From an archaeon (GTDB lineage: Archaea; Nanobdellota; Nanobdellia; Pacearchaeales; DTIR01): DNA of 64,000 nucleotides. A model generated the notes under the pieces. The model made no database searches. It was not told the DNA's origin and saw only the letters and a program-made list of their open reading frames with translations. Shown here piece by piece: positions 1,961 to 63,485 of this stretch. Position 1 is the stretch's first letter. Every line of letters begins with the position of its first letter. The stretch covers positions 67,680-131,679 of the forward strand of contig JAZDFA010000012.1 in the NCBI GenBank assembly GCA_043808285.1, read 5' to 3'. Position numbers and translations under genes: made by a program.

Positions 1961-2188
1961 TTATGTCAAGAACACTTGACAAAACCACATACTTTTAGTA
2001 TGTGGTCGTGTGTTCTTGAGCATCCTAACCAAGAAAAACTTGAAGGTTTTTCAGGGTCCCGAAAAGCTTTGCTTTTCGCGAAGTTGCACGCAAACCACAC
2101 CCCCGCAAAAAGCAAAGCTTTTTTGGGCATAAGAAATCTAGTAAGATTTCCTCTGTTTAGGGTGGGTAAAACTCAGCAACTTTTTGAT
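1961..2188 (+). repeat. modular hairpin repeat locus R1 (forward)
   Basis: TTATGTCAAGAACAC..GTGTTCTTGAGCATCCTAAC, then GAAAAAC/GTTTTTC and CGAAAAGC/GCTTTTCG hairpins. Then AAGTTGC-ACGCAAACC..two nested hairpins..GTAAAACTCAGCAACTTTTTGAT. Confidence 0.85.
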
Positions 2189-4379: not shown

Positions 4380-4450
4380 ATAAAAAATAAATTAAGAGCG
4401 TTTATAAAAGTTACCATTCATATTTTTTTAAATAAACTCTAAAAATAGGT

Positions 4451-4545
4451 CATAAAGTTGTTGAGTGCTACCTATCGATGTACAACTTCGCGAAAAACAG
4501 AAACTTTTCTCTGGGAGTTTTGAGAACACACGATTTTTATCAATT
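4451..4545 (-). repeat. modular hairpin repeat locus R2 (reverse, degenerate)
   Basis: AAAGTTGTTGAGTGCTA..CAACTTCGCGAAAAAC..CTTTTCTCTGGG..GAGAACACAC. Matches the reverse complement of blocks seen at 50204-50417. Confidence 0.55.
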
Positions 4546-4589
4546 GTTTTTGGCGTAAGATTTTTAAAGCAATCAAAACTTGATGACAA

Positions 4590-11636: not shown

Positions 11637-11686
11637 TAGCAGGGTATTAAAGAAGAATTTAAATATTTTTGTTGCCTTGATAATTT

Positions 11687-12238
11687 ATGAATAAGCTGGG
11701 TATTTTTTTTGGAGTCCTTGCACTTTGCTTTGTGGTGCAAATTAGCAGCTGCAGCGGTGGAAATGTCGGATATGTAAACTTGACAATAATGCCTTCTCCC
11801 CCATACATCTCCTCTTTAGAGATTTTGCAGCAGGAAGATTTCAATTACCTTGAATGTGATGCACAAATAATGGGTAATAACCCTTCAGACTATAATACTA
11901 TATACACTTGGAATGCTGGGGGGGTGAAAGTTGGAGAAGGAGAAAGGGTGGAAGTAAGAGACAATTGGAAAGAGATTACATGCAAGGCAGAGGCTTATGA
12001 TTCAAATAATGGCAAGGACATAAAGGAAAAGACAATTATTATAGTAAGGCACTCTATTACTGGAAATGCTGTTAGCAAGGAGGGGGGCGCAAACAACCTG
12101 TTTTTGGGAGCTATTTTGTTTGTTTCAATTGCCCTATTTTTATTCGTGTCAAGAACACTTGGCAAAAATCAAATACTTGAAAACAAAGTTTTTCTCTGTT
12201 TAAAAGATGCGGTTTTTGCAAAATTTCTGACATCATAA
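11687..12238 (+). CDS. small secreted/lipoprotein-like protein with C-terminal TM helix
   Basis: 183 aa. Signal plus Cys (VVQISSCSGG). C-terminal helix LFLGAILFVSIALFLFV. The last ~30 codons and the stop are encoded by repeat R3. Confidence 0.4.
   Translation: MNKLGIFFGVLALCFVVQISSCSGGNVGYVNLTIMPSPPYISSLEILQQEDFNYLECDAQIMGNNPSDYNTIYTWNAGGVKVGEGERVEVRDNWKEITCKAEAYDSNNGKDIKEKTIIIVRHSITGNAVSKEGGANNLFLGAILFVSIALFLFVSRTLGKNQILENKVFLCLKDAVFAKFLTS
12147..12232. repeat. modular hairpin repeat locus R3 (chimeric)
   Basis: Starts TGTCAAGAACAC and ends AAATTTCTGACA (reverse complement of TGTCAGAAATTT). Internal GAAAAC/GTTTTC hairpin and CTCTGTTTAA block. Confidence 0.7.
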
Positions 12239-14426: not shown

Positions 14427-17400
14427 GTGAAAAATAGAAACGTAATCAAGATAAAGTTTAAGGAAATTATACTTAAAGAACCAGAAATTTTTAGCGAGAC
14501 AGTTTTTCAGATTGCTACATTAATTATCTCTATTTTTGCATTCTCTTTTTTAGTTGGGTCTATTTCAATTGCGGCGAGCCCAGTGGTTAGTGCACTAGAA
14601 TCTTCTGTATGTTGTGAGAAAACAAAAGACAAGAATCTTTTCTGCCAAAATTCTATTGCTGCAAATTGCGATGATACTTTAGGCCATTCACAGACATTAT
14701 GCTCTTCAACTGACTACTGCAAATTAGGCTGTTGTATAGACACAACAGAAGGAACATGCGGAGAGAACACACCTAAGAAGGTTTGCGATTTAAGGAATGG
14801 AACATGGGATTTAAGCGCAAGCTGCAATATTGCACAATGCCAAAAAGGGTGTTGTATCTCAGGAGATAAGGCATCATTAACTACATTAGTAAGATGCAAG
14901 AAATTGGCAAGCTTTTATGGTTTAGAGACAGACTATAGAAGTGAGATAATTTCTGAGGCTACCTGTGTTAATATTGCACAGGCAGAAGACAAGGGGGCGT
15001 GCTTAATTAATACTGGTTTAGAGACAACATGCAAATTGACAACAAAGGTTCAATGTAATGGTATAACACACAATGCAAGTGCTTTCAATAAGGAATTTTT
15101 ATGCTCTGCGAAGGAATTAGGAACACCTTGCACAAGACAGGCATCCACAGGATGCATTGAAGGAAAGGACGAGGTTTATTGGTTTGATTCCTGCGGGAAT
15201 ACAGAGAATATTTATGATTCTAACAAAGACCGAAGCTGGAATAATGGAAAGATTCTTGAAAAGAGCAAGTCATGTGATTTAATCAAGGGGAATACTAGGA
15301 ATCCTCTTTGCGGAAATTGCAAATATTCTGAAGGTAGCATTTGCGGGAAAGCAAGAACGGGGATTGAGCCAAAGCCAGCTTATGGAGATTATATTTGCAG
15401 AAATGTTGACTGCGAGGATACTTTTAATGGAAATGATTACAAGCACGGAGAATCATGGTGTGTTTATGATGCGACAGTGGGGCAAGGAAAAGATTTAGTG
15501 GGAAGCAGGCATTGGAGACATCTTTGTGTAATGGGTGAAGAACAGGTTGAGCCGTGCGAGGATTATAGACAGTCCATATGCGTTGAAAATAAAGTAAAGA
15601 CAGATGAGGGAGATTTTAATGAGGCAGTATGTAAAATAAATGACTGGCGCTCATGCATTGATTATAATAACAAAGCAAATCCTCAGAGTCTATGCAGCAA
15701 TAACAAGGATTGCTATCCTTTGGCTGCATGGAAAATGAATTTATGTATGCCTCAAGTGCCTTCTGGATTTGAGATGAGAGACAGTGACAGTGCAAGCACG
15801 ATATGCGGCATGGCAACACAACAATGCACTGTTGTTTACACCAAGAAATTAAGTGGGTGGGAGTGCACTTTGAATTGCGAGTGCAAAGAACAATCGTGGG
15901 CAAACCAGATGAATAAATGGTGCACTTCTTTAGGTGATTGCGGTGGCAAATATAATCTTGCAGGGTCATATGAGAAAGGATATCAGATGTCTGGAGGACA
16001 AGCACCAAATGAGGACAGCAGTGGTTCAGATAAGGGTGCTGGCAGCGGCGGAGGAATGATGTCTTACTTACCTATGGCTGGAACTGCACTAGGCGCATAT
16101 ATGATGTTAAAAGGAGGTGCTGTTGTTGCAGCCGGAACTGTATTAGTTGCTGGAACAACAGTTACAAGCGGAGTAGTTGCTGTAACACAGGCAAGTGGGG
16201 TAGTTGTTTCTTTTACTGCGACTGCTGCTTCTCCTGTCACAATTACTGCGAGCGGAGCTGTACAGGGAGGAGTTAGTGCAAGTGGTGCAGTTAGTGCCGG
16301 CGGTGGAGGTGCGACTACTGGAAGCGGAGGTGCAGCTGCAGGAATAACTGGGTGGTTGAACGGCATGACAACAATGGGTCCTTTACTTGCTATAGCTGCA
16401 GTTGCTATAGCTGGATTTTTTATAGGAAAAATGATGGGATTAGATGATACTGCATCAGCAATAGCTGCAGGTGTCGGAGTTGCAACAGCAGTAACTTTGC
16501 AGGTATTGCATCAGATGGGCGTTCAAATGTTTACAAATTTGGCTTTTACAGGGCTATTTATTTGGGGGATGGTTGCAGCAATTATTATGATAATAATTTT
16601 CAAATTTATTTTAGGAGTAGGCAAGACAAAAAAAGAGGTAATCAGTTTCACATGTCTGCCATGGCAGCCGCCATCAGGTGGGGCAAACTGTGAAAAATGC
16701 AATACGCTTCCTATTGGTGGGGATATGAAACAGTGCAGCAAATACAGATGTGAGAGTTTAGGAGCAGCATGTTCATTGTTAAATGAGGGAACTGGAAATG
16801 AGACATGTGCATGGCTGAATAAGGACGATATAAATGCACCTACATTGAAGCCATGGAAAGATGTTCTTACTTCTGGGCATAAATACAGAGATGATGCTTG
16901 TAAGGAAGCAGGATGCTGGACTATATTAAGAGATATTGCAACAGACGGCTGCATTCAGCCATATACCTCGATAGCATTCGGAATTGAGACAAATGAACCC
17001 TCACAATGCAAGATTGATTATGCCTCTAAAGAGAAATTTGATGATATGGAATTTTATTTTGGAGAAAATCTTTATCTTTATAATCACAGCGTGCAGATGA
17101 GCATGCCTGCTCCAGAGCATATATATGAAATAAGCAAAATATTTGCTGAAGAGAATCCTGAAGAGGGAATAGTTCCTGTGCGAAATGGCGGGAACTACAC
17201 ATTATATCTAAGATGCAGGGATGCCAATGGAAATGCAAATGCCAAAGAATTTTCAGTCAGTTTTTGCGTCGACTCTGGCCCCGATTTAAACGCTCCTTTG
17301 ATAATGAGAACGAGCATTGAAAATGGTGCGCCAATAGGATACGGCACAAACTCAGTTCCAATTGATATATCCTTGAACGAGCCATCACAATGCAAATGGA

Positions 17401-18191
17401 GTAATTTAGACCAAGATTATGGGGATATGACTCAGAATTTTACATGCTCTGATTCAATTGAGCAGATGGAAGGAGACATGACTTACAAGTGCTCTGCTAA
17501 TTTGCTCGGAGTAAAGGATGCTACGACAAATATTTTCTATTTCAGATGCAAAGACCAGCCATGGCTTGCGGGAAAGAATGAATCTGGCAGGAATGATAAT
17601 AAGGAAAGTTATATTTTTAAGCTTGAAGGCACTAATCCCTTAAAGATAATTGGCAAGGGTCCTGAAGAGACAATATATTCTGGTGGTGAGAACACAGAAA
17701 TAATTCTTACAGTTGATACCTCTGAGGGTTATTCATATGGGGATTCTGTATGTTATTTTAGCAATACTGGTTATGAGAATATGCTGCAGTTTTTCACAAC
17801 AGGAGAGGCTCATCACGAGCAAACGCTTAATTTACCTTTAGGAGACCACACTTTTTACCTGTCATGCATGGATTTAGCAGGGAATGTTGACAAGACTACT
17901 ATAAGCTTTACTGCTGAGCTTGATAAGACACCCCCAGAAGTAATAAAAGCATATCAAGATGGAGGCATGTTAAAGATAATCACTGATGAGGAGAGTGATT
18001 GCAGATATGGAATAAAAGATTGCAATTTTGATTTTTTCTCTGCAACAGAAATGCCAGTTGCAGATTTAGGAGAGTATAATGCTGAATGGAGAACCGATGC
18101 CACCTATTATATAAAATGCATGGATAAGTTTGGCAACATTCCTTCAAATTCGGAATGCACTATAAAATTAAATGCATATAATGTAGAATAG
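14427..18191 (+). CDS. giant Cys-rich membrane protein, copy 1: N-terminal anchor, Cys-rich ectodomain, Gly/Ala/Val/Thr-rich hydrophobic core, four beta-sandwich-like C-terminal modules
   Basis: 1254 aa, GTG start. TM helix IATLIISIFAFSFLVG. Dozens of Cys (CCEKTKDK.., CQKGCC..). Central region GGMMSYLPMAG..FKFILGVGK. C-terminal modules with recurring EPSQCK..F/YYxxC(K/R)D..GN. Confidence 0.6.
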   Translation: MKNRNVIKIKFKEIILKEPEIFSETVFQIATLIISIFAFSFLVGSISIAASPVVSALESSVCCEKTKDKNLFCQNSIAANCDDTLGHSQTLCSSTDYCKLGCCIDTTEGTCGENTPKKVCDLRNGTWDLSASCNIAQCQKGCCISGDKASLTTLVRCKKLASFYGLETDYRSEIISEATCVNIAQAEDKGACLINTGLETTCKLTTKVQCNGITHNASAFNKEFLCSAKELGTPCTRQASTGCIEGKDEVYWFDSCGNTENIYDSNKDRSWNNGKILEKSKSCDLIKGNTRNPLCGNCKYSEGSICGKARTGIEPKPAYGDYICRNVDCEDTFNGNDYKHGESWCVYDATVGQGKDLVGSRHWRHLCVMGEEQVEPCEDYRQSICVENKVKTDEGDFNEAVCKINDWRSCIDYNNKANPQSLCSNNKDCYPLAAWKMNLCMPQVPSGFEMRDSDSASTICGMATQQCTVVYTKKLSGWECTLNCECKEQSWANQMNKWCTSLGDCGGKYNLAGSYEKGYQMSGGQAPNEDSSGSDKGAGSGGGMMSYLPMAGTALGAYMMLKGGAVVAAGTVLVAGTTVTSGVVAVTQASGVVVSFTATAASPVTITASGAVQGGVSASGAVSAGGGGATTGSGGAAAGITGWLNGMTTMGPLLAIAAVAIAGFFIGKMMGLDDTASAIAAGVGVATAVTLQVLHQMGVQMFTNLAFTGLFIWGMVAAIIMIIIFKFILGVGKTKKEVISFTCLPWQPPSGGANCEKCNTLPIGGDMKQCSKYRCESLGAACSLLNEGTGNETCAWLNKDDINAPTLKPWKDVLTSGHKYRDDACKEAGCWTILRDIATDGCIQPYTSIAFGIETNEPSQCKIDYASKEKFDDMEFYFGENLYLYNHSVQMSMPAPEHIYEISKIFAEENPEEGIVPVRNGGNYTLYLRCRDANGNANAKEFSVSFCVDSGPDLNAPLIMRTSIENGAPIGYGTNSVPIDISLNEPSQCKWSNLDQDYGDMTQNFTCSDSIEQMEGDMTYKCSANLLGVKDATTNIFYFRCKDQPWLAGKNESGRNDNKESYIFKLEGTNPLKIIGKGPEETIYSGGENTEIILTVDTSEGYSYGDSVCYFSNTGYENMLQFFTTGEAHHEQTLNLPLGDHTFYLSCMDLAGNVDKTTISFTAELDKTPPEVIKAYQDGGMLKIITDEESDCRYGIKDCNFDFFSATEMPVADLGEYNAEWRTDATYYIKCMDKFGNIPSNSECTIKLNAYNVE

Positions 18192-19088: not shown

Positions 19089-22000
19089 ATGAATAACAAA
19101 AAAACGGCAAAAGAAAAGCCAGTATTACAGGCGTTCTTCTTAATGGCTAACATGATTATTTCGATATTTGCATTTTCTTTTTTGATTGCTGCTGTATCAG
19201 TTATATCAACACCTGTTGCTGCTGCAGCTACATCAACTGAATGCTGCGAGAAGGTAAAGGACAAGGATTTATTCTGCCAGAATACATTATCAACAAGCTG
19301 CGATACAAAATTTGCTCATGCTCCAACTTCATGCGACTCAACTTCATTTTGCAGATTAGGGTGCTGTTATGACGGCAAGGAAGGAACTTGCGCTGAAAGC
19401 ACCCCAAGAAAGGTTTGTGATTTAAGGGGTGGGACATGGGATTTGAGCGCAAGCTGCAATATCGCACAATGCCAAAAGGGGTGCTGTGTTCTTGGAGACC
19501 AGGCATCATTGACAACATTAGTAAGATGCAAGAAATTGGCAAGCTTTTATGGTTTAGAGACAGATTACCGGTCTGCTATTGTTTCTGAGCAGGCATGCGT
19601 TGATATTGCACAAGCAGAGGATAAAGGAGCATGCGTTATCACTGCAGGCGGAGTTGAAACAACTTGCAAGCTAACAACAAGAGTAGAATGCAAGAGCATG
19701 ACACACAATGAAACTGCTTTCAATAAAGGATTTTTATGTTCGGCAGAGAAGTTAGGAACACCTTGCACAAGACAGGCATCCACAGGATGCATTGAAGGAA
19801 AGGACGAGGTTTATTGGTTTGATTCCTGCGGGAATACTGAAAATATTTATGATGCTAACAAGGACAGGAGCTGGAACAATGGAAAGATATTAGACAAGGA
19901 AAAGTCATGCGATCCTATACAAGATAATGCAAAGGATGCAAATTGCGGCAATTGCGATTATTATATGGGAAGCATGTGCGGAAAGGCAAGGACAGGAGTT
20001 GAGCCAAGACCTGCTGAGGGGGATTACATTTGCAGGGATTTGAATTGTTATAATACTTACAATGGAAAAGATTACAAGCACGGAGAATCATGGTGTGTTT
20101 TTGATGGTGCTGTAGGATTAGGCAGAGATGCACCAGGCAGCAGGCATTGGAGACATCTTTGTGTGATGGGTGAGGAGAAAGTAGAGCCTTGTGATGATTA
20201 CAGGCAGGGGATTTGTGTTCAGGATAGTGTGGATATAGAAGGTCAGGGCAAATACACAGAGGCAATGTGCAGGGCAAATGGCTGGAAGATGTGCTTTGAT
20301 TATAATTCTAAATCTAATGCAGAAAAACAATGCAATGATAATAATGACTGCATGTGGATGCAAGCATGGAAATTAAAATTATGCGTGCCAAATTTCCCTC
20401 CAGGATTTAATATAAAGGCTGGAGGAGACCTTGCAGGTGGAGCAACTACTTTCTGTAGCATGGGTTCTTCATCATGTTCTGTAGCTTATCAGAAAACTTT
20501 AACGAAAGGTTGGCAGTGTGTTGGCAATTGCGAATGCAAGGAACAAGCATGGGTAAATACTATGGACAAATTGTGCACTTCTATGGGAGATTGTGGTGGA
20601 AAAGCTAATATTGCTGGAGCTTATACTAAAGATGGATATGAAATAAGCGGAACAGAGAATGTTCCAGATAAAAATGTAAGCAACAAAGATGATGGTTTTG
20701 GAGGTTTTGGTGGTTTATTGATGTCTGGGGGGATAGCTATAGGTGCTATTTGGATATTTAATAACATGAAGCTTATAACTACTTCTCAAGCTACTGCATT
20801 AAAAGCAGCTGAAGTTATTGGAGGCAAGACTGCTAGGATGACTAGCCTCAAAGGGGCGGAAGCAGGATATTCCCCAGGTAAGGGATTAACATTAAATCAG
20901 TGGTTGAGTATTAATGCTAAACAGGGAACCGGGTTTGCCAATATAGCTGTAAATGTCGCAGGAGCATATATGGTTTCTATGCTTGTTAATGGATTATTTG
21001 GTTTGAAAGGAGAAGCCGCAAACATGGTAACAATGGCAGGTGTAACTACTTCATTAGCAACTTCAGTTTATGGAAATATGATGGCCTCAAAAGTAGCTGC
21101 AGGAACTGCGCAGCCTTTCTTAGGTCTGGGTGGGGGAGCTTGGTTTGCCCCTCTTATTTGGGCTGCAGTAGTAATGTTAGTAGTAGCTTTAATTATGAAA
21201 ATGATGAAGATAGGTGCGACAAGAACGGAGAAAGTAACATTCACATGTTTGCCATGGCAGCCTCCAGTTGGCGGGGCTGATTGCCAGAAATGCAATAAGG
21301 AACCAATTGGTGGGGAGATGAAGCCATGCACTAAATATAGATGTGATAGTCTTGGGCAGGGTTGTTCATTATTAAATGAAGGTACTGGAAAAGAGACTTG
21401 CACTTGGATTAATAAGGATGACAGCACTGCGCCGGTAATAAAACCATTAAAGTCTGTGCTTACAAAAGACCATTCTTACAAAGAAATTAAGCCTTGCCCG
21501 CCAGGACCTGGTTGCTTCAAGATAGAAAAAGAGGGTTCTAAAGACGGCTGCATAAAATCATTTACCCCATTGCAATTTGGAATAGAAGCTAATGAGCCTG
21601 CACAATGCAAGCTAGACACAAATCACACTGGGAAGTTTGATGACATGCAGTTTTATTTTGGTGATAATCTTTACTTATATAATCATACTATGATGATGAG
21701 CCTGCCTTCACCTGCTTCTATAAATGCGTTAAGCAATGAAACAACAAGCCCCACATTAAAGAATGATGGGAAATATACAATGTATATAAGATGCAGGGAC
21801 GGAAATGGGAATTGGAACTTGGGGGAAATGGCAATGCAGTTCTGCGTTGACCCTGGCCCAGACACGACACCTCCAATGATAATGAGAACAAGCATAGAGA
21901 ACGGAGCACCAATAAGTTACAATGCAAAGAATGTTCCTTTGGATGTTTATCTGAATGAGCCATCAGCGTGCAAATGGAGCAGAACAGATCAGGATTATAA

Positions 22001-22784
22001 CAATATGAATAATACATTTATATGTGCTTCAAGTGTTGAGCAGATAGAAGGAGACATGACTTACAAGTGCAGCACAATATTAAGCAGCGTTAATGATAAG
22101 GTAACAAATACCTTCTATTTCAGATGCAAAGACCAACCATGGCTTGCAGGAGTTAATGAGAGTGACAGGAATATTAACAAAGAGAGTTATGTTTTCAAGC
22201 TTGAAGGCACTATTCCATTGAATATCACTAAGGTAGAACCAAATGGAACAGTTAAAGGAGGAGCAGAGCCAATCTCTGTGAAATTAACTGCAGAGACTGC
22301 AAATGGATATTCAAGCGGGGATGCAAAATGTTCTTTTGCAACAAATGGTTATGATGGGGCGATGGTAGAATTTTTTGATACTGGTAGTTACAAACATGAA
22401 CAGACTCTTGATTTGTATGCTGGAGACTACACTTTCTATGTGATGTGTAGAGATGATGCAGGAAATACTGACCAGAATATGACTAAATTCAAAGTAGAAT
22501 TGGATAAAACACCTCCCATAGCTGTAAGAGCTTATCAGGATGGGGGAATGCTAAAGATAGTAACTGATGAAGATTCAGAATGCAAGTATGGAATAAAGGA
22601 CTGCAACTTTGACTTTTTATCTGCTACAGACATGCCATTTGAAAATTCAACAGAGCATACTGCAGAATGGAGAACAGACATAACTTATTATATCAAGTGC
22701 AAAGACCAATATGGGAATATGCCAGTACCCTCTGCTTGTTCGATACAAGTAGATGCATATGATATACAGACGAATAGTGAGTAA
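19089..22784 (+). CDS. giant Cys-rich membrane protein, copy 2 (paralog of 14427..18191)
   Basis: 1231 aa. Collinear with copy 1 in both ectodomain parts (CCEKVKDKDLFCQN.., FTCLPWQPPVGGADCQKCN.., four C-terminal modules). The central hydrophobic region is unrelated in sequence. Confidence 0.6.
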   Translation: MNNKKTAKEKPVLQAFFLMANMIISIFAFSFLIAAVSVISTPVAAAATSTECCEKVKDKDLFCQNTLSTSCDTKFAHAPTSCDSTSFCRLGCCYDGKEGTCAESTPRKVCDLRGGTWDLSASCNIAQCQKGCCVLGDQASLTTLVRCKKLASFYGLETDYRSAIVSEQACVDIAQAEDKGACVITAGGVETTCKLTTRVECKSMTHNETAFNKGFLCSAEKLGTPCTRQASTGCIEGKDEVYWFDSCGNTENIYDANKDRSWNNGKILDKEKSCDPIQDNAKDANCGNCDYYMGSMCGKARTGVEPRPAEGDYICRDLNCYNTYNGKDYKHGESWCVFDGAVGLGRDAPGSRHWRHLCVMGEEKVEPCDDYRQGICVQDSVDIEGQGKYTEAMCRANGWKMCFDYNSKSNAEKQCNDNNDCMWMQAWKLKLCVPNFPPGFNIKAGGDLAGGATTFCSMGSSSCSVAYQKTLTKGWQCVGNCECKEQAWVNTMDKLCTSMGDCGGKANIAGAYTKDGYEISGTENVPDKNVSNKDDGFGGFGGLLMSGGIAIGAIWIFNNMKLITTSQATALKAAEVIGGKTARMTSLKGAEAGYSPGKGLTLNQWLSINAKQGTGFANIAVNVAGAYMVSMLVNGLFGLKGEAANMVTMAGVTTSLATSVYGNMMASKVAAGTAQPFLGLGGGAWFAPLIWAAVVMLVVALIMKMMKIGATRTEKVTFTCLPWQPPVGGADCQKCNKEPIGGEMKPCTKYRCDSLGQGCSLLNEGTGKETCTWINKDDSTAPVIKPLKSVLTKDHSYKEIKPCPPGPGCFKIEKEGSKDGCIKSFTPLQFGIEANEPAQCKLDTNHTGKFDDMQFYFGDNLYLYNHTMMMSLPSPASINALSNETTSPTLKNDGKYTMYIRCRDGNGNWNLGEMAMQFCVDPGPDTTPPMIMRTSIENGAPISYNAKNVPLDVYLNEPSACKWSRTDQDYNNMNNTFICASSVEQIEGDMTYKCSTILSSVNDKVTNTFYFRCKDQPWLAGVNESDRNINKESYVFKLEGTIPLNITKVEPNGTVKGGAEPISVKLTAETANGYSSGDAKCSFATNGYDGAMVEFFDTGSYKHEQTLDLYAGDYTFYVMCRDDAGNTDQNMTKFKVELDKTPPIAVRAYQDGGMLKIVTDEDSECKYGIKDCNFDFLSATDMPFENSTEHTAEWRTDITYYIKCKDQYGNMPVPSACSIQVDAYDIQTNSE

Positions 22785-23499: not shown

Positions 23500-24264
23500 C
23501 TACAGAGAAATCTTCTGATTATCTGATGGGATAAATAGCCCTTCAGGTATCTGTTTTTCAATCTCTTTTGTTTCTTTTTGCATGTAATGCTCACTGATTC
23601 CGATCAGATATATCTGTTTCAATCTTGCTTTTTGAGCTATCAACTTTAATTCCTGGCCATCTATATGCAAGGGGTCTGGTAAGTATCTTCCTAAAACATA
23701 TTGTCCATCCAATATTGAAACATTAGCGTTACCTATAATCTTCATTGATTTTTCATCTATCTTGCTGAAATCTGGCGCATATATCACTTTCTTGTTTTTG
23801 TTCTTTATAATAAATCCTTTTGTTTCAAATCCTTTTGCATGCTCTAGGGGAAAAGGAGTAATGCTTAAATCTGCTATTTTTCGTTCTTCAAAATCTTTTA
23901 AGATGACAAATTCTTCTTTTATCCATGGAAAGAAACGCATAACATACTCATGTGTCTCTTTGCTTAAGTACACTGGTCCTTTATTTGTTTTTTTGCTTAG
24001 ATAAAGGTCTCCTATACCGTCCAGATGGTCAAAATGAGCATGAGTGACAAATGTTGCATCTATTTTACTTATCTTATTAGTTATTATCTGATTTCTAAAA
24101 TCTGGAGAAATATCAAATAGCAAGTTGGTATCTCCTTCTTTAATTATAATTGAAGGTCTAGACCTGAACTTCCCATTTTTTCTATATTCATTACATAGAT
24201 TGCAATCACACAGCCCAACAGGCATTCCATGAGCTTCACCGGTGCCTAGAAATATTATTTCCAT
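23500..24264 (-). CDS. MBL-fold metallo-hydrolase, PqqB/PhnP-like
   Basis: 254 aa. N-terminal LGTGEAHGMPVGLCDCNLCN (CxCxxC as in PqqB/PhnP). THAHFDHLDG (HxHxDH). Confidence 0.7.
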   Translation of the reverse strand: MEIIFLGTGEAHGMPVGLCDCNLCNEYRKNGKFRSRPSIIIKEGDTNLLFDISPDFRNQIITNKISKIDATFVTHAHFDHLDGIGDLYLSKKTNKGPVYLSKETHEYVMRFFPWIKEEFVILKDFEERKIADLSITPFPLEHAKGFETKGFIIKNKNKKVIYAPDFSKIDEKSMKIIGNANVSILDGQYVLGRYLPDPLHIDGQELKLIAQKARLKQIYLIGISEHYMQKETKEIEKQIPEGLFIPSDNQKISL

Positions 24265-24929
24265 TTTGTTATGTTTTTACTTGATTTTATTAGTTCCTTT
24301 ATATCTTTATTAGCAAGAGAGTATATAAATTTCTTGTCTTTTTTGGAGATATTGATTCTTCTGTCGATATCATGAAGATTATGCAGATAAAAACCAAATT
24401 TTTTTAAGAGGTATGCTCTGCCTATCAAAGTTATCATTTTGGTTCTGCTTTCTAGTAACCCCATTCTTTCTTGTCTCTTGTAAGATTTTTCTAGATTATA
24501 CAATTCCGCTTTTATGTAGTCATTCAACTTCATACATTCATTTTTGCAGTCTTCCCCATTCATTATTAAGACATTTTGAGGGTCAATATAGCTATTATAT
24601 TTCCATAGAAGATAGTCTGATTTATTACTCTCATTAATATAAGCAACATCTAACCAAAATGAAACATCTTTTTTTATTTCGCAAGAATCATGAATTATAA
24701 AATTATCTCTTGGGTTATTTAATATTGAGATTAGCTGATTGCCTTCCAGGTCATATACTTCTTTTCTTTCTGTTTTATTCGGGAAATAATCAAGAATGAG
24801 AGTGAATTCTAAATCTGAAAGTCTATCTCGTATTACTGTGTTATTGATTATCTTTGCTTTTGGATAGCATGATTGAAATAATCTAAACACATACCCCTGT
24901 TCTTGATTAAGTCTTTTTGTTTTTTCCAT
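24255..24929 (-). CDS. hypothetical protein (224 aa) in radical SAM operon
   Basis: ORF overlaps upstream radical SAM 3' end by 82 nt and downstream MBL gene by 10 nt. No recognisable motif. Confidence 0.4.
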   Translation of the reverse strand: MEKTKRLNQEQGYVFRLFQSCYPKAKIINNTVIRDRLSDLEFTLILDYFPNKTERKEVYDLEGNQLISILNNPRDNFIIHDSCEIKKDVSFWLDVAYINESNKSDYLLWKYNSYIDPQNVLIMNGEDCKNECMKLNDYIKAELYNLEKSYKRQERMGLLESRTKMITLIGRAYLLKKFGFYLHNLHDIDRRINISKKDKKFIYSLANKDIKELIKSSKNITKWK

Positions 24930-25966
24930 ATCTTCGTCCAGTTTATTTTTGATATATTCCCAATAGGATTCTTTTCATAAGGGCATTTATATATCTCTCC
25001 AAAAATATCTATATAACTGCTGCTAAAACCCGCAGAACAATATTTTTTTATTGTACTCAATTCACCTATTATCACTTTTTTATTGCTTTCTTTTTTTAGT
25101 CTCTTTAGAATAGCTGTTGTCTTGTTAATCTCTGGCAGAATTTTGTAAAGGCCCCTTTTGTAAGGTACTACTAATGAAAATTTAATCATTGAGATATTAT
25201 CCAACTTCTCAAGTTCTTTTAGGATATCACTCAATTCTGCATAATTAGAATTATATTTTGTGACGACCACATTTATTTTAAGAGGGATTAAAAGTTCATC
25301 AAAAAATTTTATGTTGTCTAATATCTCTTTTTTTGAATAGCATATGCCTAATTTTCTAAGAGTACTCTTTTTTAATGAATGAACTGAAAGTTGTATTATC
25401 CTAATATGTTTCTTTATTTTCTTTAATCTGCTTTTTATATCATTATGTCAGAAATGCTTTTGCGAAAACCACATGCTTTAGCATGTGGATGAGCATTTCT
25501 GATCATCCTAAAGTTGCACGCAAACCACACCCTTTAGGGTGTGGTAAAACTCAGCAACTTTTTGATTTAGAAACCCGTTAGTATTTATTTCTATTGAGAT
25601 ATTCTTTTTTGAAGCTAATTCTATGAAATCATCAAATCTAGGATTTAGTAATGGTTCTCCCCCAGTTATGATTATTTCAAGTGTAGAACTTGTTAATTTA
25701 TTTAGAATATTCTTAAAACTTGATAAAGACAAATTTCTAGTTATATTATTATTCCGGTTATAACAAAACACACAGTGAAGATTACATTTGTTTGTTATCT
25801 CTAAGAACACCCTAATGGGTCCATCAGCTTCTTTTCTTTTTCTAAAAGAAACGAAATTTGATTTCAGAAAACTAATTACATCTCTTTCTTTGAATTCTTT
25901 TAAGTCTTCTATCCTAAAGATTTGACCGTTGCGAGAAATTAGAAAGTATATCTCTCTATTGTTCAT
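24848..25966 (-). pseudogene. radical SAM enzyme with twitch/SPASM-like C-terminus, interrupted by a ~123-nt hairpin repeat
   Basis: N-half (ORF 25508..25984): CNLHCVFC, GGEPLL, EINTNGFL. C-half (open from 25447 to 24848): DIKSRLKKIKKHIRIIQLSVHSL..CSAGFSSSYIDIFGEIYKCPY. Both halves share one codon phase. The only three in-frame stops (25510-08, 25480-78, 25450-48) lie inside repeat R4. Likely start is MNNREIY at 25966. Confidence 0.7.
25443..25566 (+). repeat. modular hairpin repeat locus R4, inserted inside radical SAM coding sequence
   Basis: TTATGTCAGAAATGC..ACCACATGC-TTT-AGCATGTGG..GCATTTCTGATCATCCTAA-AGTTGCACGCAAACCACACCC-TTTA-GGGTGTGGTAAAACTCAGCAACTTTTTGAT. Confidence 0.85.
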
Positions 25967-25967
25967 C

Positions 25968-26096
25968 TTAGTCCCATGCATCACTGGAAGGCATCATTAG
26001 ACATCCTTCATCTGTTCTTCTGTGTTTGATGATCTGTTCTAAGAATACTTTCGTATTTTCTTTATCTTGTCTTTTCTGTTGATTTCTTTTTTTCAT
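25968..26096 (-). CDS. unannotated small ORF (42 aa), candidate precursor peptide for the adjacent radical SAM enzyme
   Basis: MKKRNQQKRQDKENTKVFLEQIIKHRRTDEGCLMMPSSDAWD. Stop TAA is one nt before the MNNREIY start of the radical SAM gene. AAAGATTTAAATAAAT promoter-like box about 30 nt upstream. Confidence 0.4.
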   Translation of the reverse strand: MKKRNQQKRQDKENTKVFLEQIIKHRRTDEGCLMMPSSDAWD

Positions 26097-27656: not shown

Positions 27657-28164
27657 TTATGTCAAGAACACTTGACAAAAACCACATACCATACTTTAGT
27701 ATGCGGTAGCGTGTTCCTGAGCACAAGAAAATCTTGTTTGATTTTCTTATGCCGGAAATTCCTAAGGAAGAATTTCCTTGCATCCTAACAGGGGGAATCT
27801 TTTGATGTCAGAAATGTGGTTCAAACCGCACCCCGCAAAAAGCTTTGCTTTTCGGGGCATAGAAAACCGCTAGAGGTTTTCTCTGCTTTAGGGTGCATTT
27901 CTGATCATCCTAACCTCGAAAACCTTTTGGTTTTCGGGGCCCTGAAAATCCAGTAGGATTTTCTTGGAATTCCAAGCAAACCGCACCTCCGCGAAAACAT
28001 CTTGTTTTCGGGGCATAGGAAATTAGTAAATTTCCTCTGTTTAAGGTGCGGTAAAACTCAAGGAATTTTTTGATTCCCAATGTCCCGAAAAGCTAAGCTT
28101 TTCGCGAAGTTGCACGCAAACTTCCACCTTTTAAGGTGGAAGTAACACACAGCAACTTTTTGAT
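27657..28164 (+). repeat. modular hairpin repeat locus R5, largest composite array (508 nt)
   Basis: At least four full modules plus eight simple GAAAANC/GNTTTTC hairpins. Ends with CAGCAACTTTTTGAT. Track ORFs here (27576..27788, 27586..27783) are translations of the repeat. Confidence 0.9.
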
Positions 28165-28214: not shown

Positions 28215-28328
28215 ATGGAATCCAAAAAAGCAGATAATAAAAATGTCTTATCTGTAGCTAAGAAGGCATTATCTGAAAAAGATGTTTTAATGTCTTATTC
28301 AGAGGCATATGGCGGAGAAAGCTCATAA
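28215..28328 (+). CDS. unannotated small ORF (37 aa), candidate precursor peptide
   Basis: MESKKADNKNVLSVAKKALSEKDVLMSYSEAYGGESS. Ends 19 nt before the ATG at 28348, which is preceded by GGGG. Below the track cutoff. Confidence 0.4.
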   Translation: MESKKADNKNVLSVAKKALSEKDVLMSYSEAYGGESS

Positions 28329-28347
28329 TTTTAAGATAGGGGTTATT

Positions 28348-29448
28348 ATGAACTTAACCGCAGTAGTAGAAGTTACTGAAAATTGTAATCTTGAATGTAC
28401 ATTTTGCCTTAGAAATTCATTTAAGAGCGAGATAATGACCCTCAAAACCCTTGAAAAGATAATTTCTCATGTCCTTAATTTCAGCACAGATAGAGTAGAT
28501 TTTATATGGCATGGAGGAGAGCCTCTAATTGCTGGAATTGATTTTTTTAAGAGAGTAAAAGAACTGCAGAATAAATATAACAAAAATAACTTGAAGATTG
28601 TCAATAATGTTCAAACAAATGCAATTCTTTTGAATGAGGATTTTATCAAATTTTTTGAGAAAGAGGGATTTATTATAGGAACGAGCATACAAGGAACAAA
28701 AAGAATACACGATTCTTCAAGAGTGGATAATTTAGGGAATCCAACTTTTGAGAGAGTAATAAAGAATATATCAAAATTGAAGAAGAAACCCTCTGCAATA
28801 ATTGTTCTGACCAAACAGATATTAGGCAAGGAAAAACCAATCTACAAAGAGATGAAAAAATATACTTCAGGATTCAGAATTTCAGAGTACTTCCCAAAAA
28901 ATAAACTAGATCTCACATCTAAGGATACTAAATTAATGCCTACACCTAGAGAATATGCGAAATCCATGATGAGGTTTTATAACTTATGGAAAAAAGATAA
29001 AAATCCTATTGAGATAAGGCCAATTACAGAGTTTATCCGAGGGATGATAAAGGGTCAATGTGGAGGATGCCTCTACTCTCAGAAAGCATGTAATTTTTCA
29101 GTAATAGGTGTGGATCATAAAGGAGATTTCTATACTTGTATGAGGAGTTTTGGGAATAAGAGATATTTCTTTGGGAATGTATCAGACAGACCCTTAAGCA
29201 AACGAACAAAAATATCAAAAAATAATATGTCTGAAAGATTATACCCTCTAAAAAACAAAGAATGCAAAGATTGCAGATTTTGGAATCAGTGCAATGGCGG
29301 ATGCCCCCAAGAATCTTTATCGCTATATGGAGATATAATTCATAAGGCATTTTATTGTAATGGAAGAAAAATACTTTTTGAAGAGATAGAAAAAGATTTA
29401 GGAGGAAAAGATGGAATTTCTAGAATACTGCAAACGCAAAAATCCTGA
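28348..29448 (+). CDS. radical SAM/SPASM-domain enzyme (anaerobic sulfatase maturase-like family)
   Basis: ORF 28309..29448; start preferred at MNLTAVVEV (28348). CNLECTFC; GGEPL; SPASM Cys pattern CGGCLYSQKAC..DFYTC..CKDCRFWNQCNGGCPQE..YC. Confidence 0.8.
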   Translation: MNLTAVVEVTENCNLECTFCLRNSFKSEIMTLKTLEKIISHVLNFSTDRVDFIWHGGEPLIAGIDFFKRVKELQNKYNKNNLKIVNNVQTNAILLNEDFIKFFEKEGFIIGTSIQGTKRIHDSSRVDNLGNPTFERVIKNISKLKKKPSAIIVLTKQILGKEKPIYKEMKKYTSGFRISEYFPKNKLDLTSKDTKLMPTPREYAKSMMRFYNLWKKDKNPIEIRPITEFIRGMIKGQCGGCLYSQKACNFSVIGVDHKGDFYTCMRSFGNKRYFFGNVSDRPLSKRTKISKNNMSERLYPLKNKECKDCRFWNQCNGGCPQESLSLYGDIIHKAFYCNGRKILFEEIEKDLGGKDGISRILQTQKS

Positions 29449-32722: not shown

Positions 32723-32728
32723 AATCAT

Positions 32729-32868
32729 AAAAACCTCTGTTTTACTGGGGGTTTTCACGAAAAGCAAAGCTTTTCGAGTCCCCGAAAAACAAGAAGGTTT
32801 TTCTTGGTTAGGATGCAAGGAAATTCGAAAGAATTTCCGGCACAGAAAATCCTAGAGGATTTTCTTGT
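32729..32868 (-). repeat. modular hairpin repeat locus R6 (reverse, lacks the TGTCA terminal block)
   Basis: CGAAAAGC/GCTTTTCG, GAAAAAC/GTTTTTC, GGTTAGGATGC (reverse complement of GCATCCTAACC), GGAAATTC/GAATTTCC, AGAAAATCC/GGATTTTCT. Confidence 0.8.
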
Positions 32869-32885
32869 GATTCAAAATTAAAAAA

Positions 32886-38373: not shown

Positions 38374-38524
38374 ATCAAAAAATTCCTGGAGGTTTGCTTG
38401 GAATTTTAGGATGCTCAAGAACACAACCACACACTAAACAGAGAAAATCCTAACTGGATTTTCAATGTCCTAAAAATCAAGAGATTTTTTCGACTGTGTG
38501 GTTTTTGTCAAGTGTTCTTGACAT
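38374..38524 (-). repeat. modular hairpin repeat locus R8 (reverse)
   Basis: Reverse complement reads ATGTCAAGAACAC-TTGACAAAAACCACACAG-[two hairpins separated by CAT]-CTGTTTAGTGTGTGG-TTGTGTTCTTGAGCATCCTAA-AATTCCAAGCAAACC..AGGAATTTTTTGAT. Confidence 0.85.
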
Positions 38525-40926: not shown

Positions 40927-40957
40927 GAAAATGTATTTAAATATGTTTTTTGTTTTG

Positions 40958-41093
40958 TGTCAAGAACATTTGATTAAACTCGTGTGTTCTTGATCATCCT
41001 AACGGAGAGAATCTTTTGATTCTCAATGTCCCGAAAAGCAGTTGCTTTTCGCGAAGTTGCCGTTTGGCAATAGCACTAGAGCAACTTTTTGAT
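40958..41093 (+). repeat. modular hairpin repeat locus R9 (forward)
   Basis: TGTCAAGAACA..GTGTGTTCTTGATCATCCTAAC-GGAGAGAATC/GATTCTCAATG-TCCCGAAAAGC/GCTTTTCGCG-AAGTTGC..GAGCAACTTTTTGAT. Confidence 0.85.
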
Positions 41094-50203: not shown

Positions 50204-50417
50204 TATCAAAAAGTTGCTGAGTGCTAAACAAATTGCAACTTCGCGAAAAGCAAATGCTTTTCGGGACATTGAGAATCTTTAAGATTCTCTCTGTTAGGAT
50301 GCAAGGAAATTCTGCTTTGAGAATTTCCTGCACAGAAAATCCAGTAAGATTTTCTTGTGCTCAAGAACACGCAATTACACACTTAAGTGTGTATTTTTGT
50401 AAAGTGTTCTTGACATA
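50204..50417 (-). repeat. modular hairpin repeat locus R10 (reverse, near-complete composite)
   Basis: ATCAAAAAGTTGCTGAG..GCAACTT-CGCGAAAAGC/GCTTTTCGGGA-..GAGAATC/GATTCTC..GTTAGGATG-CAAGGAAATTC/GAATTTCCTG-CACAGAAAATC/GATTTTCTTGTG-CTCAAGAACAC..GTGTTCTTGACATAA. Confidence 0.9.
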
Positions 50418-54884: not shown

Positions 54885-56129
54885 ATGTTAGTAAGAGATA
54901 TTGATGCAAGAATAATAAAAGATTCCAGAAAAGAGGACACAATTGAAGTAGAGGTGATAACTAAAGATGGAAGATTTACTGCGTCTGCACCTTCTGGAAA
55001 GAGCAAGGGAATTCATGAGGCAGAGGCTTTTTCTTCAAGAGGAAATGACTTTTCAATTGCATTTGCAAAAGCAATGGGTAAAAAATTAGGCGAAAAAGAA
55101 CTTTTAGTATTTGATGATTTGAAGATACTGGAGGATTATGCAAGGAAGCTTGACAACAGCGACAACTGGAGCATAATCGGGGCAAATACTCTTTACGCAT
55201 TGGAGGCTGCATTGCTCAAAGCTATTGCAGCTTCACAAGGGCAGGAGCTTTGGAGATTCTTGTGCAACAAGCCGGGAATATTGCCTTTGCCTTTAGGAAA
55301 TTGCATTGGCGGGGGGAAGCATGTAAAACAGGATACTAAGACAGACATCCAGGAATTTTTGATTTTGCCAAAGACCAAATCATTTTATGATGCATATTTC
55401 ATAAATCTTCAAGCTTACAAGATTGCAAAACAAATTCTAGTTGAAAGAGACAAGAGATATGAGGGAATTTTAACAGACGAGAAAGCATTTGCATCAACAC
55501 TAGAGAATGAGGAGGTTCTTCAATTGCTTAGCGAGGTTAGAGAAGTTATAAAAAACAAATTCGGGATAACCCTGCAATTAGGGGTGGATGTTGCCTCTTC
55601 AAGTTTTTTCGTAAATAAATATTATTATTACAATAATCCTGCGAAGAAACTAAAAAAAGAAGACCAGATAGCGCATATGATTAACTTAATAGAGAAATAT
55701 AATTTATCATATATTGAAGATCCACTAAATGAAGAAGATTTTGAAGGATTCAAAAAACTCAAAGAGCATATTGACAGCAGCAATATAAAATGCATGGTCT
55801 GCGCAGATGATTTGACCGCTACTCAATTTGACAGAGTTGAGCGGGCAGTGAATGAAAATTGCATGCATGCAATGATTATCAAGCCAAATCAAAATGGCTC
55901 GATACTCCAAACAAAGAGAATAGTTGATTTTGCAAAATCAAGAGGAATAAACTGCGTCATGTCTCATCGTTCTGGAGAGACATTAGACAACACGATAGCA
56001 CATTTAGCAACTGGTTGGCAGATTCCAATAATAAAAACTGGAATATTGGGCAAGGAGAGATTTGCAAAACTTCATGAATTATTAAGGATAGAAAGAGAAA
56101 TAAGCAAAAAACAAATTTCAAAATCATAA
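54885..56129 (+). CDS. eno: enolase (divergent)
   Basis: ORF 54846..56129, start moved to MLVRDIDARIIKDSRKEDTIEVEV. SAPSGKSKGIHEA and SHRSGETLDNTIAHLA match enolase signatures with substitutions. Confidence 0.75.
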   Translation: MLVRDIDARIIKDSRKEDTIEVEVITKDGRFTASAPSGKSKGIHEAEAFSSRGNDFSIAFAKAMGKKLGEKELLVFDDLKILEDYARKLDNSDNWSIIGANTLYALEAALLKAIAASQGQELWRFLCNKPGILPLPLGNCIGGGKHVKQDTKTDIQEFLILPKTKSFYDAYFINLQAYKIAKQILVERDKRYEGILTDEKAFASTLENEEVLQLLSEVREVIKNKFGITLQLGVDVASSSFFVNKYYYYNNPAKKLKKEDQIAHMINLIEKYNLSYIEDPLNEEDFEGFKKLKEHIDSSNIKCMVCADDLTATQFDRVERAVNENCMHAMIIKPNQNGSILQTKRIVDFAKSRGINCVMSHRSGETLDNTIAHLATGWQIPIIKTGILGKERFAKLHELLRIEREISKKQISKS

Positions 56130-56305
56130 CATTGAGAATCACAAGATTCTCTCTGTTACAGAGGAAACATCTCTGTTTCTTATGCATAGAAAAACGAAGT
56201 TTTTCTCTGGGATGCAAGGAAATTCAAAAGAATTTCAGGCACAGAAAATCCAAATGATTTTCTTGTGCTCAAGAACACACGAATTTGGTCAAGTGTTCTT
56301 GACAC
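56130..56305 (-). repeat. modular hairpin repeat locus R12 (reverse)
   Basis: GAGAATC/GATTCTC, ..AGAAAAAC/GTTTTTCT.., GGGATGCAAGGAAATTC/GAATTTCAGG, CACAGAAAATC/GATTTTCTTGTG, CTCAAGAACAC..GTGTTCTTGACAC. Confidence 0.85.
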
Positions 56306-57288: not shown

Positions 57289-57379
57289 CCTAAAAATCAG
57301 ATGATTTTTAGTCTGCTCGGAAACAGAGGAAATCTTAATTGATTTCCTATGCCCCGAAAAGCAGAAGCTTTTCGCGGTG
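57289..57379 (-). repeat. modular hairpin repeat locus R13 (isolated inner two-hairpin unit, reverse)
   Basis: Reverse complement reads CCGCGAAAAGC/GCTTTTCGGGG-CAT-AGGAAATC/GATTTCCT-CTGTTT, identical in layout to the interior of full modules. Confidence 0.75.
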
Positions 57380-63371: not shown

Positions 63372-63485
63372 TTATGTCAGAAATGTGGTTCAAACCGCAC
63401 CCCGCAAAAAACTTTGTTTTTTGGGGCATAGGAAATCAAAGATTTCCTCTGTTTAGTGTGTGGTAAAACTCAGCAACTTTTTGAT
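63372..63485 (+). repeat. modular hairpin repeat locus R14 (chimeric module)
   Basis: TTATGTCAGAAATG-TGGTTCAAACCGCACC-[CCGCAAAAAAC/GTTTTTTGGGG]-CAT-[AGGAAATC/GATTTCCT]-CTGTTTAGTGTGTGGTAAAACTCAGCAACTTTTTGAT. Confidence 0.85.

Follow-up and report, generated by a model that had tools for sequence, protein, structure and literature searches.

The window analyzed here is a 64,000-nucleotide (nt) stretch of an archaeal contig (JAZDFA010000012.1, positions 67,680 to 131,679), and all positions below are window positions unless another locus is named. On its minus strand, at 25966..24848, lies a radical S-adenosylmethionine (SAM)/SPASM-like gene interrupted by one copy of a structured hairpin repeat. 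The gene reads as a single frame of 373 codons with exactly three internal stops, which span 25448..25510 on the minus strand and all fall inside the repeat copy: TAG (25510-25508) is part of the linker CCTA, TAA (25480-25478) lies in the loop of repeat module b, and TGA (25450-25448) arises from the TCA of the repeat's 5' terminus. The 5' part of the gene (25568..25966, minus strand) starts with the ATG at 25966 and carries the cluster motif CNLHCVFC, GGEP and NTNG; the 3' part (24848..25444, minus strand) continues in the same frame and includes a twitch/SPASM-like C-terminus. The insertion site is directly after the NTNG strand, and the open reading frame (ORF) list splits the gene into halves at 25508..25984 and 24848..25270. 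The single-frame translation agrees with the original prediction, made from the sequence of the window, that both halves share one codon phase and that the three stops are confined to the repeat.

The interrupting sequence is a full-length minimal copy of a bipartite hairpin repeat, 122 nt long (ATG...GAT, 25445..25566), as delimited by nhmmer and a covariance model; its canonical strand is the plus strand, antisense to the gene. A 124-nt element at 25443-25566 had been proposed, and the repeat is indeed there, but the family-defined span leaves the extra two T's to the flank or target. In a search with a family profile derived from 16 minimal copies, the interrupting copy scores E 1.7e-21 and is the best and only full-length match in the window; covariance model R1 gives it 105 bits on the plus strand (E 5e-20, model positions 1-122) and 30 bits on the minus strand, and the family alignment A2 that contains it has 54 invariant columns. 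Two modules follow one another. Module b (25445..25506, plus strand) consists of an outer stem, ATGTCAGAAATGCT / AGCATTTCTGA(T)CAT, an internal loop, TTTGCGAAAA, and an inner hairpin, CCACATGC-TTTA-GCATGTGG; in linear order it runs ATGTCAGAAATGCT, the loop, the inner hairpin, ATG and AGCATTTCTGATCAT, after which comes the linker CC. Module a (25509..25566, plus strand) has the outer stem (T)AAAGTTGC / GCAACTTT, the internal loops ACGCAAA and TAAAACTCA, the inner hairpin CCACACCC-TTTA-GGGTGTGG and the 3' terminus TTTTTGAT, arranged as TAAAGTTGC, ACGCAAA, inner hairpin, TAAAACTCA and GCAACTTTTTGAT. All four stems are perfect. The sense RNA of 25430-25580 folds as two compound hairpins at -55 kcal/mol (shuffled sequences, -30 +/- 3.5; z = -7.25), the opposite, plus strand also folds into two compound hairpins (z = -6.9), and in the minimum-energy fold both flanks are left unpaired.

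Removal of the copy restores a continuous enzyme. When 123 nt are deleted in silico, whichever phase within the 3-nt repeat AAT/ATT is chosen, a 331-amino acid (aa) ORF results that reads ..SIEINTNGFL/NDIKSRLKK.. across the junction (slash). Excision of 120 nt (the 118-nt core 25447-25564 plus one AT) is likewise in frame and gives 332 aa reading ..NTNGFLNNDIKS.., with the site parsed as CATT-AT-[GTCAG...TTTTTG]-AT-TTAGAAACC and the product as ..NGFLNNDIKS... The predicted uninterrupted DNA junction is therefore ..TATATCATTAT/TTAGAAACC.. under the 120-nt model or ..ATCATT/TAGAAACC.. under the 123-nt model. The exact boundaries, which the original prediction had singled out for checking, are thus narrowed to a net insertion of 120 or 123 nt, both in frame, but the flanks disclose no unambiguous target-site duplication. 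The restored protein gives one continuous match to Pfam Radical_SAM (PF04055; residues 56-196, profile positions 2-152 of 166, E 4e-23), together with weak Fer4_12 and SPASM matches. Its alignment with nine homologues is unbroken and gap-free over the junction, which falls just after the invariant N130 of the TNG strand, and every invariant residue of that alignment is kept, C61, C65, C68 and GGEP included. With the CX3CX2C motif (CNLHCVFC) and a contiguous partial TIM-barrel domain after excision, the protein belongs to the radical SAM superfamily, and the predicted contiguity of the protein across the element is upheld.

The copy in the gene holds one, two and three stops in its three sense frames, so that insertion in any phase would truncate the protein. 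Downstream of the last stop (25448), no in-frame ATG, GTG or TTG occurs for 59 codons, the next start being the GTG at 25270; the 3' part is hence unlikely to be made separately. These facts bear on the idea that the gene now functions as a split radical SAM enzyme, its two polypeptides being translated separately. Although the N-terminal ORF (25984/25966..25508) keeps the CX3CX2C cluster and the GGE motif, a second polypeptide starting at 25270 would forgo 59 codons of the barrel, and the homologues are all single chains. We find a split enzyme barely credible.

Taken together, a model for the locus emerges. The 122-nt copy at 25445-25566 belongs to a non-coding, structured, multi-copy repeat of Woesearchaeota-type DPANN archaea, composed of two tandem compound hairpins with the ends ATGTCA...TTTTTGAT. 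It would have entered an accessory radical SAM/SPASM-like coding sequence at the DNA level, and translation would now end at 25510-25508, leaving a young pseudogene. We consider it highly probable that a DNA-level insertion of a family repeat inactivated this gene and made it a young pseudogene.

Insertion, as opposed to some other origin of the interruption, is supported by a second, independent insertion inside a gene of another Woesearchaeote. At locus L037 (7332..8084, minus strand; JGI Ga0209541_10021321, 99.8% identical to DATDUA010000025.1), a 250-aa class I SAM methyltransferase, the same methyltransferase as P0125 and L028, contains the element as 40 in-frame codons without stops, in the same orientation as in the radical SAM gene. 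With the insert in place, Pfam Methyltransf_25 matches only residues 44-89 (profile positions 1-46) and Methyltransf_11 only residues 133-185; once the 40 residues are removed, Methyltransf_25 (profile positions 1-97 of 97) and Methyltransf_11 both match end to end. Among 53 homologues at E<=1e-10, the only one of 250 aa is the identical ENA protein, and the remaining ~50 are nearly all shorter, at 155-240 aa (full-length ones mostly 204-219). Eight aligned homologues are without exactly these 40 residues (ISRK/IIKDSG versus ISRK-[40 aa]-IIKDSG), and these shorter proteins support insertion. At the DNA level the site reads AGGAAA-AT-[CATAAAAAC...GTTCTTGAC]-AT-TATTAAAGAT, a 118-nt core plus a second AT amounting to 120 nt.

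Both in-gene cases fit a core plus a second AT placed beside T[T/A]AT. Across 74 non-redundant copies, the 5' flank preceding GTCA is T (56), T/A (42/16), A (57) and T (72); the T-richness fades further upstream, and the flank after GAT is random. From the flank pattern, insertion would have involved either a 2-bp AT duplication at T[T/A]AT or an IS200/IS605-like insertion 3' of the motif without duplication. Nearly every copy has an AT on either side of the core, and this AT also belongs to the module b stem (ATG pairs with CAT), so that duplication and non-duplication are indistinguishable here. Each end of the element finds its pairing partner in the module to which it belongs. Copies that are otherwise identical differ by extra hairpins nested in their loops, which points to repeated insertion, and the two in-gene insertions constitute sequence-level evidence that the family moves. 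The proposal that a mobile repeat had disrupted an intact gene therefore stands on family membership, on the continuity of the gene and on the methyltransferase case, while no empty site was found to complete it.

Several observations weigh against this account. For the radical SAM locus, the empty-site pattern ACTAACGGGTTTCTA-N{0,30}-GATATAAAAAGCAG returned 0 matches in metagenome contigs, a result that is uninformative since the window's genome is absent from the returned loci. No orthologue close enough for an empty-site comparison was found in the collections searched, the best homologue being 30% identical and encoded on a non-syntenic contig without the element; the neighboring methionyl-tRNA synthetase has no exact match on record. 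Flanks of ~40 copies show no duplication beyond the AT. The termini are not inverted repeats, as the 5' end, ATGTCAAGAACAC, agrees with the reverse-complemented 3' end, ATCAAAAAAACAA, at ~8/13 positions. In the ~0.4 Mb of sequence examined, neither a transposase or autonomous partner (among 20 window proteins and the ORFs beside orphan ends) nor b...a module pairs kilobases apart were detected. The 5' terminus is ~95% identical between genomes whose flanking housekeeping proteins are 53-78% identical, which could leave room for a cellular, host function, the repeat then not being purely selfish, or for a conserved cognate enzyme. Finally, the suggested recency of the insertion is an inference, and so is the presumed death of the gene, which is read from sequence alone.

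The original prediction also allowed, at lower prior, that the element is removed from the RNA. Removal could proceed by bulge-helix-bulge (BHB) splicing or other processing and ligation, or the ribosome could bypass the insert, and in each case a full-length enzyme would still be made. The insertion keeps the frame, the gene is without other lesion, AAU codons stand at both junctions 123 nt apart like a take-off/landing pair, and the insert as a whole forms two stable hairpins with their bases at the junctions; an in-frame structured insert in an archaeal protein gene also recalls archaeal BHB mRNA introns such as that of cbf5, and a hairpin insert between matching codons (AAU...AAU) recalls the translational bypass elements of T4 gene 60 and the mitochondrial byps of Magnusiomyces. 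With a prior of 1 in 3, however, frame retention taken alone carries no evidential weight, and an AT-flanked insertion accounts for the AAT repeat. The BHB motif, in which two bulges of 3 nt stand on either side of a 4-bp helix where exon and intron meet, is absent: the best score over all junction phases was 9/12 pairs, whereas shuffled sequences reached 8-12 and most often 10. Neither the fold, with its unpaired flanks, nor a search for intron or ribozyme families (no match at E<=10) favors splicing, and, unlike the archaeal introns, the insert comes from a mostly intergenic repeat family. The known translational bypasses (T4 gene 60, mitochondrial byps) cover ~50 nt at most and require a stop codon immediately following take-off. 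The gap of 120-123 nt here is far longer, the codon after take-off is CAA with no stop directly there, nothing indicates a general tolerance of the DPANN family in genes, and in the methyltransferase the element is simply translated. Removal or bypass at the RNA level is thus highly improbable, and this part of the original prediction is not sustained.

How long ago the insertion occurred can be bounded from the condition of the gene. Outside the element lie 993 coding nt (331 codons, ~30% GC), in which 5.7% of possible substitutions would create a stop. With indels ignored, the probability of no new stop is 0.57 at 1%, 0.32 at 2%, 0.06 at 5% and 0.003 at 10% neutral divergence. On the best reading, the insertion is younger than roughly 5% neutral divergence, that is, young and not necessarily "very recent"; the latter wording of the original prediction fits the freedom from further lesions, but the age is bounded only. 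The interruption could instead be old, the halves being those of a decaying pseudogene or ORFs persisting by chance. No close orthologue shows the gene still in use in the lineage, and the presence of a copy upstream of TYW1 in the window and again at the related locus L034 suggests that some insertions are ancient. The 331 codons free of further stops or frameshifts are difficult to reconcile with the divergence that an old event would entail, the catalytic motifs are all intact, and the stems of this copy are perfect, unlike those of decayed copies such as that at L047. We judge an old interruption very unlikely.

These two copies lie at 1963-2188 in the window and at 6673-6769 in L034, in the same relative orientation with respect to TYW1 and with module b ~95% identical at the nucleotide level, against 53-78% identity of the flanking proteins; retention of an ancient copy, a hot spot for insertion or concerted evolution could account for them.

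Assembly or binning might also have placed a repeat where none exists, either by mis-assembly into the gene or through a consensus that represents a minority allele. Multi-copy repeats are classic mis-assembly points. Yet both flanks belong to the same gene, strand and frame and join into a contiguous domain, and no copy in the window is identical to the one in the gene, which was thus not simply copied in from elsewhere. We accord an artefact only a slim chance.

The repeat family extends well beyond this locus. A scan for the 21-nt 5' terminus over one genome per prokaryotic species found 12 loci in the Woesearchaeota metagenome-assembled genome (MAG) CAYMCA01 and 4 in the Nanoarchaeia MAG DATDUA01, the other matches being scattered and chance-like. 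A further 32 stretches with this terminus were found in JGI metagenome contigs, and no family copy in viral contigs. The window proteins are 53-78% identical and locally syntenic to contigs bearing the same family, which marks the source of the window as a Woesearchaeota-like DPANN archaeon. Many copies outside the window are 115-127 nt long with the exact b+a layout of the copy in the gene, and model R1 returned 40 matches at E<=1e-10 in 311 kb of related loci. Each module is built from three parts: an outer stem, an asymmetric internal loop that is conserved and ends in CAAA, and the inner hairpin CCRCA..TTTA..TGYGG. In an alignment of 39 distinct copies, 98.2% of the pair cells hold standard pairs and 19/30 pairs show compensatory changes; the alignment was fitted to the model, which favors the structure. 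Controls bear out the covariation: 0/500 shuffles reached the observed level, slid partners gave 29-50% pairing, and an independent RNAalifold run on a MAFFT alignment recovered 11 compensated pairs. Helices 1 and 2 are 99.6% and 97.7% paired, with compensatory changes, and helix 3 (module a) shows a compensatory change in 8/9 pairs. The outer stem of module a differs by subfamily: AAGTTGC/GCAACTT, ACAAGTGCC/GGCACATTGT, ACAAGGGGC/GCCCCATTGT, AAAAACC/GGTTTTT and AAATTCC/GGAATTT. An excess of G.U over A.C on the canonical strand in alignment A5 hints that this strand is the folding one.

Copy number, composition and position vary freely among the related genomes. One ~100-nt presence/absence difference involves accessory hairpins, in intergenic sequence too diverged for exact boundaries. 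Large indels between related loci that are unrelated to the element are small ORFs: ~350 nt at L043 1502-1850 versus L047 515-517, and a 446-nt presence/absence difference between the syntenic contigs L033 (5827-6284) and L060 (10466-10477), which is a small ORF and not a hairpin repeat.

Such conservation of structure raises the question of whether the family mainly serves the host, as an insulator or a terminator of antisense transcripts, an RNA-stability element or a protein-binding site, and spreads by recombination, the copy in the radical SAM gene being an accidental ectopic one. Strong structural covariation, the near-invariant 5' terminus across diverged genomes, an orientation bias, the T5-T8 run that comes after a hairpin on the canonical strand and a preponderance of G.U-type over A.C mismatches on that strand (19 to 8, p=0.05, in an alignment biased towards the model) are consistent with a host role. 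The free variation between related genomes, the existence of nested and tandem copies and the two insertions inside genes speak against it, and function is not exclusive of mobility, both of which the repetitive extragenic palindromic (REP) sequences and bacterial interspersed mosaic elements (BIMEs) show. We regard a mainly host-functional family as unlikely.

The orientation bias concerns copies between co-directional genes, of which 16 have the canonical strand antisense to the genes and 5 have it sense (p=0.027; both in-gene copies are included and the gene calls are crude). The canonical strand ends in a hairpin and then T5-T8, which resembles a termination signal, oligo-T being the archaeal terminator signal. 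The bias may have arisen by selection against a terminator-like T5-T8 run in mRNAs; an alternative is a link to the direction of replication, as for single-strand transposons.

Returning to DNA-level insertion, movement would presumably depend on an enzyme acting in trans, either a hairpin-recognizing single-strand transposase of the IS200/IS605 or REP-associated tyrosine transposase (RAYT) type, or a site-specific recombinase with a 2-nt AT core; these candidates are suggested by the hairpin ends without terminal inverted repeats and by the conserved T[T/A]AT 5' flank. No RAYT (TnpA-REP) was present among the window proteins scanned, nor a TnpA(Y1)/TnpB partner sharing the element ends in the sequence examined. 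A bolder proposal, which we treat as a long shot, is that the two-module fold is the working part of a new hairpin-guided DPANN mobile system with seamless insertion and excision, the radical SAM gene being reversibly off and not dead. The internal loops would then read the element's own ends, like the guide hairpins of IS200/IS605 or the bridge RNAs of IS110, and such a system would have no terminal inverted repeats, a 2-nt AT core beside T[T/A]AT and strand specificity. In the common subfamily, the module b loop TTGACAAAA shows complementarity to the ends when joined, TTTTG/(G)TCAA, which fits; the radical SAM copy, with its loop TTTGCGAAAA, has no such complementarity, and this weakens the proposal.

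Whether the family is adapted for translation, as are the Rickettsia palindromic elements (RPEs), was considered and rejected. An open sense frame exists in only 2/16 minimal copies, and in an element-peptide search of 1.84 billion representative proteins the methyltransferase was the only internal case for that subfamily. Several genes read into an element for a few codons or take their stop from it (L041, L052, L057 and L043), and short spurious proteins made of element sequence are present in public protein sets. At L022 (2534-3331, plus strand), the first ~45 codons of the longest ORF of an HD-domain protein overlap a diverged copy, and the pilin-like protein P0178 has a repeat-encoded N-terminal extension. 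Both are probably mis-called starts, though coding sequence may have absorbed the repeat at these sites.

Within the window, ~12 sites carry the family, mostly with extra nested hairpins. On the canonical strand the copies start with (T)TATGTCA(A)GAA and finish in ...TTTTTGAT, with a variable set of hairpins in between; the copy in the gene is the minimal form, and larger copies have extra small hairpins nested in their loops or linker. The 3' terminus TTTTTGAT recurs at 2176-2188, 28152-28164, 41081-41093, 63473-63485 and, on the minus strand, 50205-50217. On the plus strand, the composite at 1963..2188 comprises module b, two free hairpins and a module a with two hairpins nested in its loop; 27659..28164 holds three abutting copies (27659-27806, 27805-28074 and ~28076-28164) that fill the intergenic region between the divergent genes for methionyl-tRNA synthetase (MetRS) and a radical SAM/SPASM protein; 40957..41093 is a further composite; and the copy at 63374..63485 has the 5' end ATGTCAGAAATG and the 3' 35 nt in common with the copy in the gene (97% identical). 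On the minus strand are found a copy with two hairpins nested in module b (38374..38524), a composite (50205..50416), a copy without the canonical 3' end (56129..56305), a partial copy of hairpins and a module-a-like 3' end, TTTTTATGAT (32727..32874), and a degenerate copy of approximate coordinates (4462..4560). A composite at 12146..12233 carries two inverted 5' termini (GTGTCAAGAAC... and ...TTTCTGACAT) and overlaps the 3' end of the ORF 11687..12238, just upstream of PCNA. Small accessory hairpins, CCnGAAAAGC-loop-GCTTTTCnGG, also occur alone, two of them at 57321..57376 on the minus strand and others at L033 ~4540-4640; the latter are absent from the syntenic site next to a tRNA gene at L060 ~11600-11700. 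That tRNA gene (L033 ~4440-4550) itself has an internal segment that differs in length between the two contigs, which may be a tRNA intron of variable size.

The interrupted gene resides in a small gene group (23500-26096, minus strand). A 42-aa ORF without a family match (25968..26096, minus strand) abuts its start, and the gene is followed by a 224-aa protein without a family match and then by a PqqB/GPMC-like hydrolase of the metallo-beta-lactamase (MBL) fold. From this arrangement, the 42-aa ORF is possibly a precursor peptide akin to those of ribosomally synthesized and post-translationally modified peptides (RiPPs), and the group resembles a peptide-modification cluster, which would be dispensable. 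A second radical SAM/SPASM gene (28309-29448, plus strand) has its best NCBIfam matches to DynA and anaerobic sulfatase maturases, all below cut-off; between this gene and MetRS lies the 500-nt array in which three repeat copies abut one another. Elsewhere, the window encodes PCNA, aIF5A, Cdc48-like ATPase repeats, several aminoacyl-tRNA synthetases, enolase and TYW1. A 427-aa fused PriS-PriL primase (10353-11636, minus strand) matches both the small and large subunit domains in one protein, and two tandem paralogous genes (14427-18191 and 19089-22784, plus strand), of ~1250 aa each, share 66-82% nucleotide identity in long blocks.

The knock-out event is itself ordinary, while the repeat family seems to be undescribed. 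Against Rfam, the window reaches the gathering score for two tRNAs only, and at a permissive threshold the elements gave nothing better than E 0.6 and 24 bits; a literature search on hairpin, palindromic or miniature inverted-repeat transposable element (MITE) repeats of Woesearchaeota and DPANN archaea found no description of it. DPANN genomes are small and streamlined, yet this one has a structured repeat roughly once per 5 kb, much as the reduced Rickettsia genomes carry palindromic elements. The two in-gene insertions indicate that the family can both destroy and remodel genes in these uncultured archaea. For automatic annotation, the consequences are split ORFs, small ORFs that are spurious and overlong gene ends (P0121-P0124, P0178-P0182); its copies could also serve as markers for strain-resolved metagenomics. 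For the study of transposons, an archaeal enzyme that moves elements with hairpin ends and no inverted repeats would be a worthwhile find.

Among known systems, the family seems to be a new member of the small hairpin repeats, which include REP/BIME, RPEs and hairpin-ended MITEs such as the palindrome-associated transposable elements (PATEs), in a phylum from which none appears to have been described. Like REP/BIME, it forms variable hairpin mosaics in intergenic regions, with an orientation bias, compensatory stem changes and possible terminator or stabilizer roles, and imperfect palindromes in mosaic intergenic clusters are found at 1963-2188, 27659-28164, 50205-50416 and elsewhere. REP/BIME elements, which combine function and mobility, are mobilized in trans by a hairpin-recognizing HUH enzyme (RAYT). 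The DPANN units differ in being larger, ~55-60 nt compound hairpins with internal loops, in forming a fixed b+a pair with defined termini and in being archaeal, and the radical SAM copy is intragenic.

With MITEs, including the archaeal ones of Sulfolobus, Halobacterium and Haloquadratum (PATEs), the family shares its small size, absence of coding capacity and multiple copies (122 nt, below ~500 bp; ~12 sites per 64 kb); it differs in having no terminal inverted repeats, no clear target-site duplication and no autonomous partner in the sequence examined. MITEs inactivate genes by insertion or make in-frame fusions, and nested copies occur; section 3.1 of the review that describes this names no MITE from DPANN archaea (PMC10969869). 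The DPANN family has hairpins at both ends, T-[T/A]-A-T 5' of GTCA and a random right flank, although the data also fit a 2-nt duplication. PATEs, descendants of IS200/IS605-type elements, end in hairpins, lack both terminal inverted repeats and a target duplication, and go in beside a short conserved motif.

The likeness to RPEs is one of layout and behavior, the DPANN family being archaeal and RPEs alphaproteobacterial; both are non-coding palindromic repeats of ~100-150 bp in small, reduced genomes. RPEs sit between and inside protein-coding genes with the frame kept, with 44 insertions in R. conorii (PMC10969869). In the DPANN family, by contrast, frequent in-frame translated insertion into ORFs is not seen: in-gene copies are rare (one internal and translated, one disruptive), and most copies have stops in every frame. 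Whereas the copy in the radical SAM gene truncates its protein, the methyltransferase copy, with its 40 extra residues and no stops, behaves exactly like an RPE.

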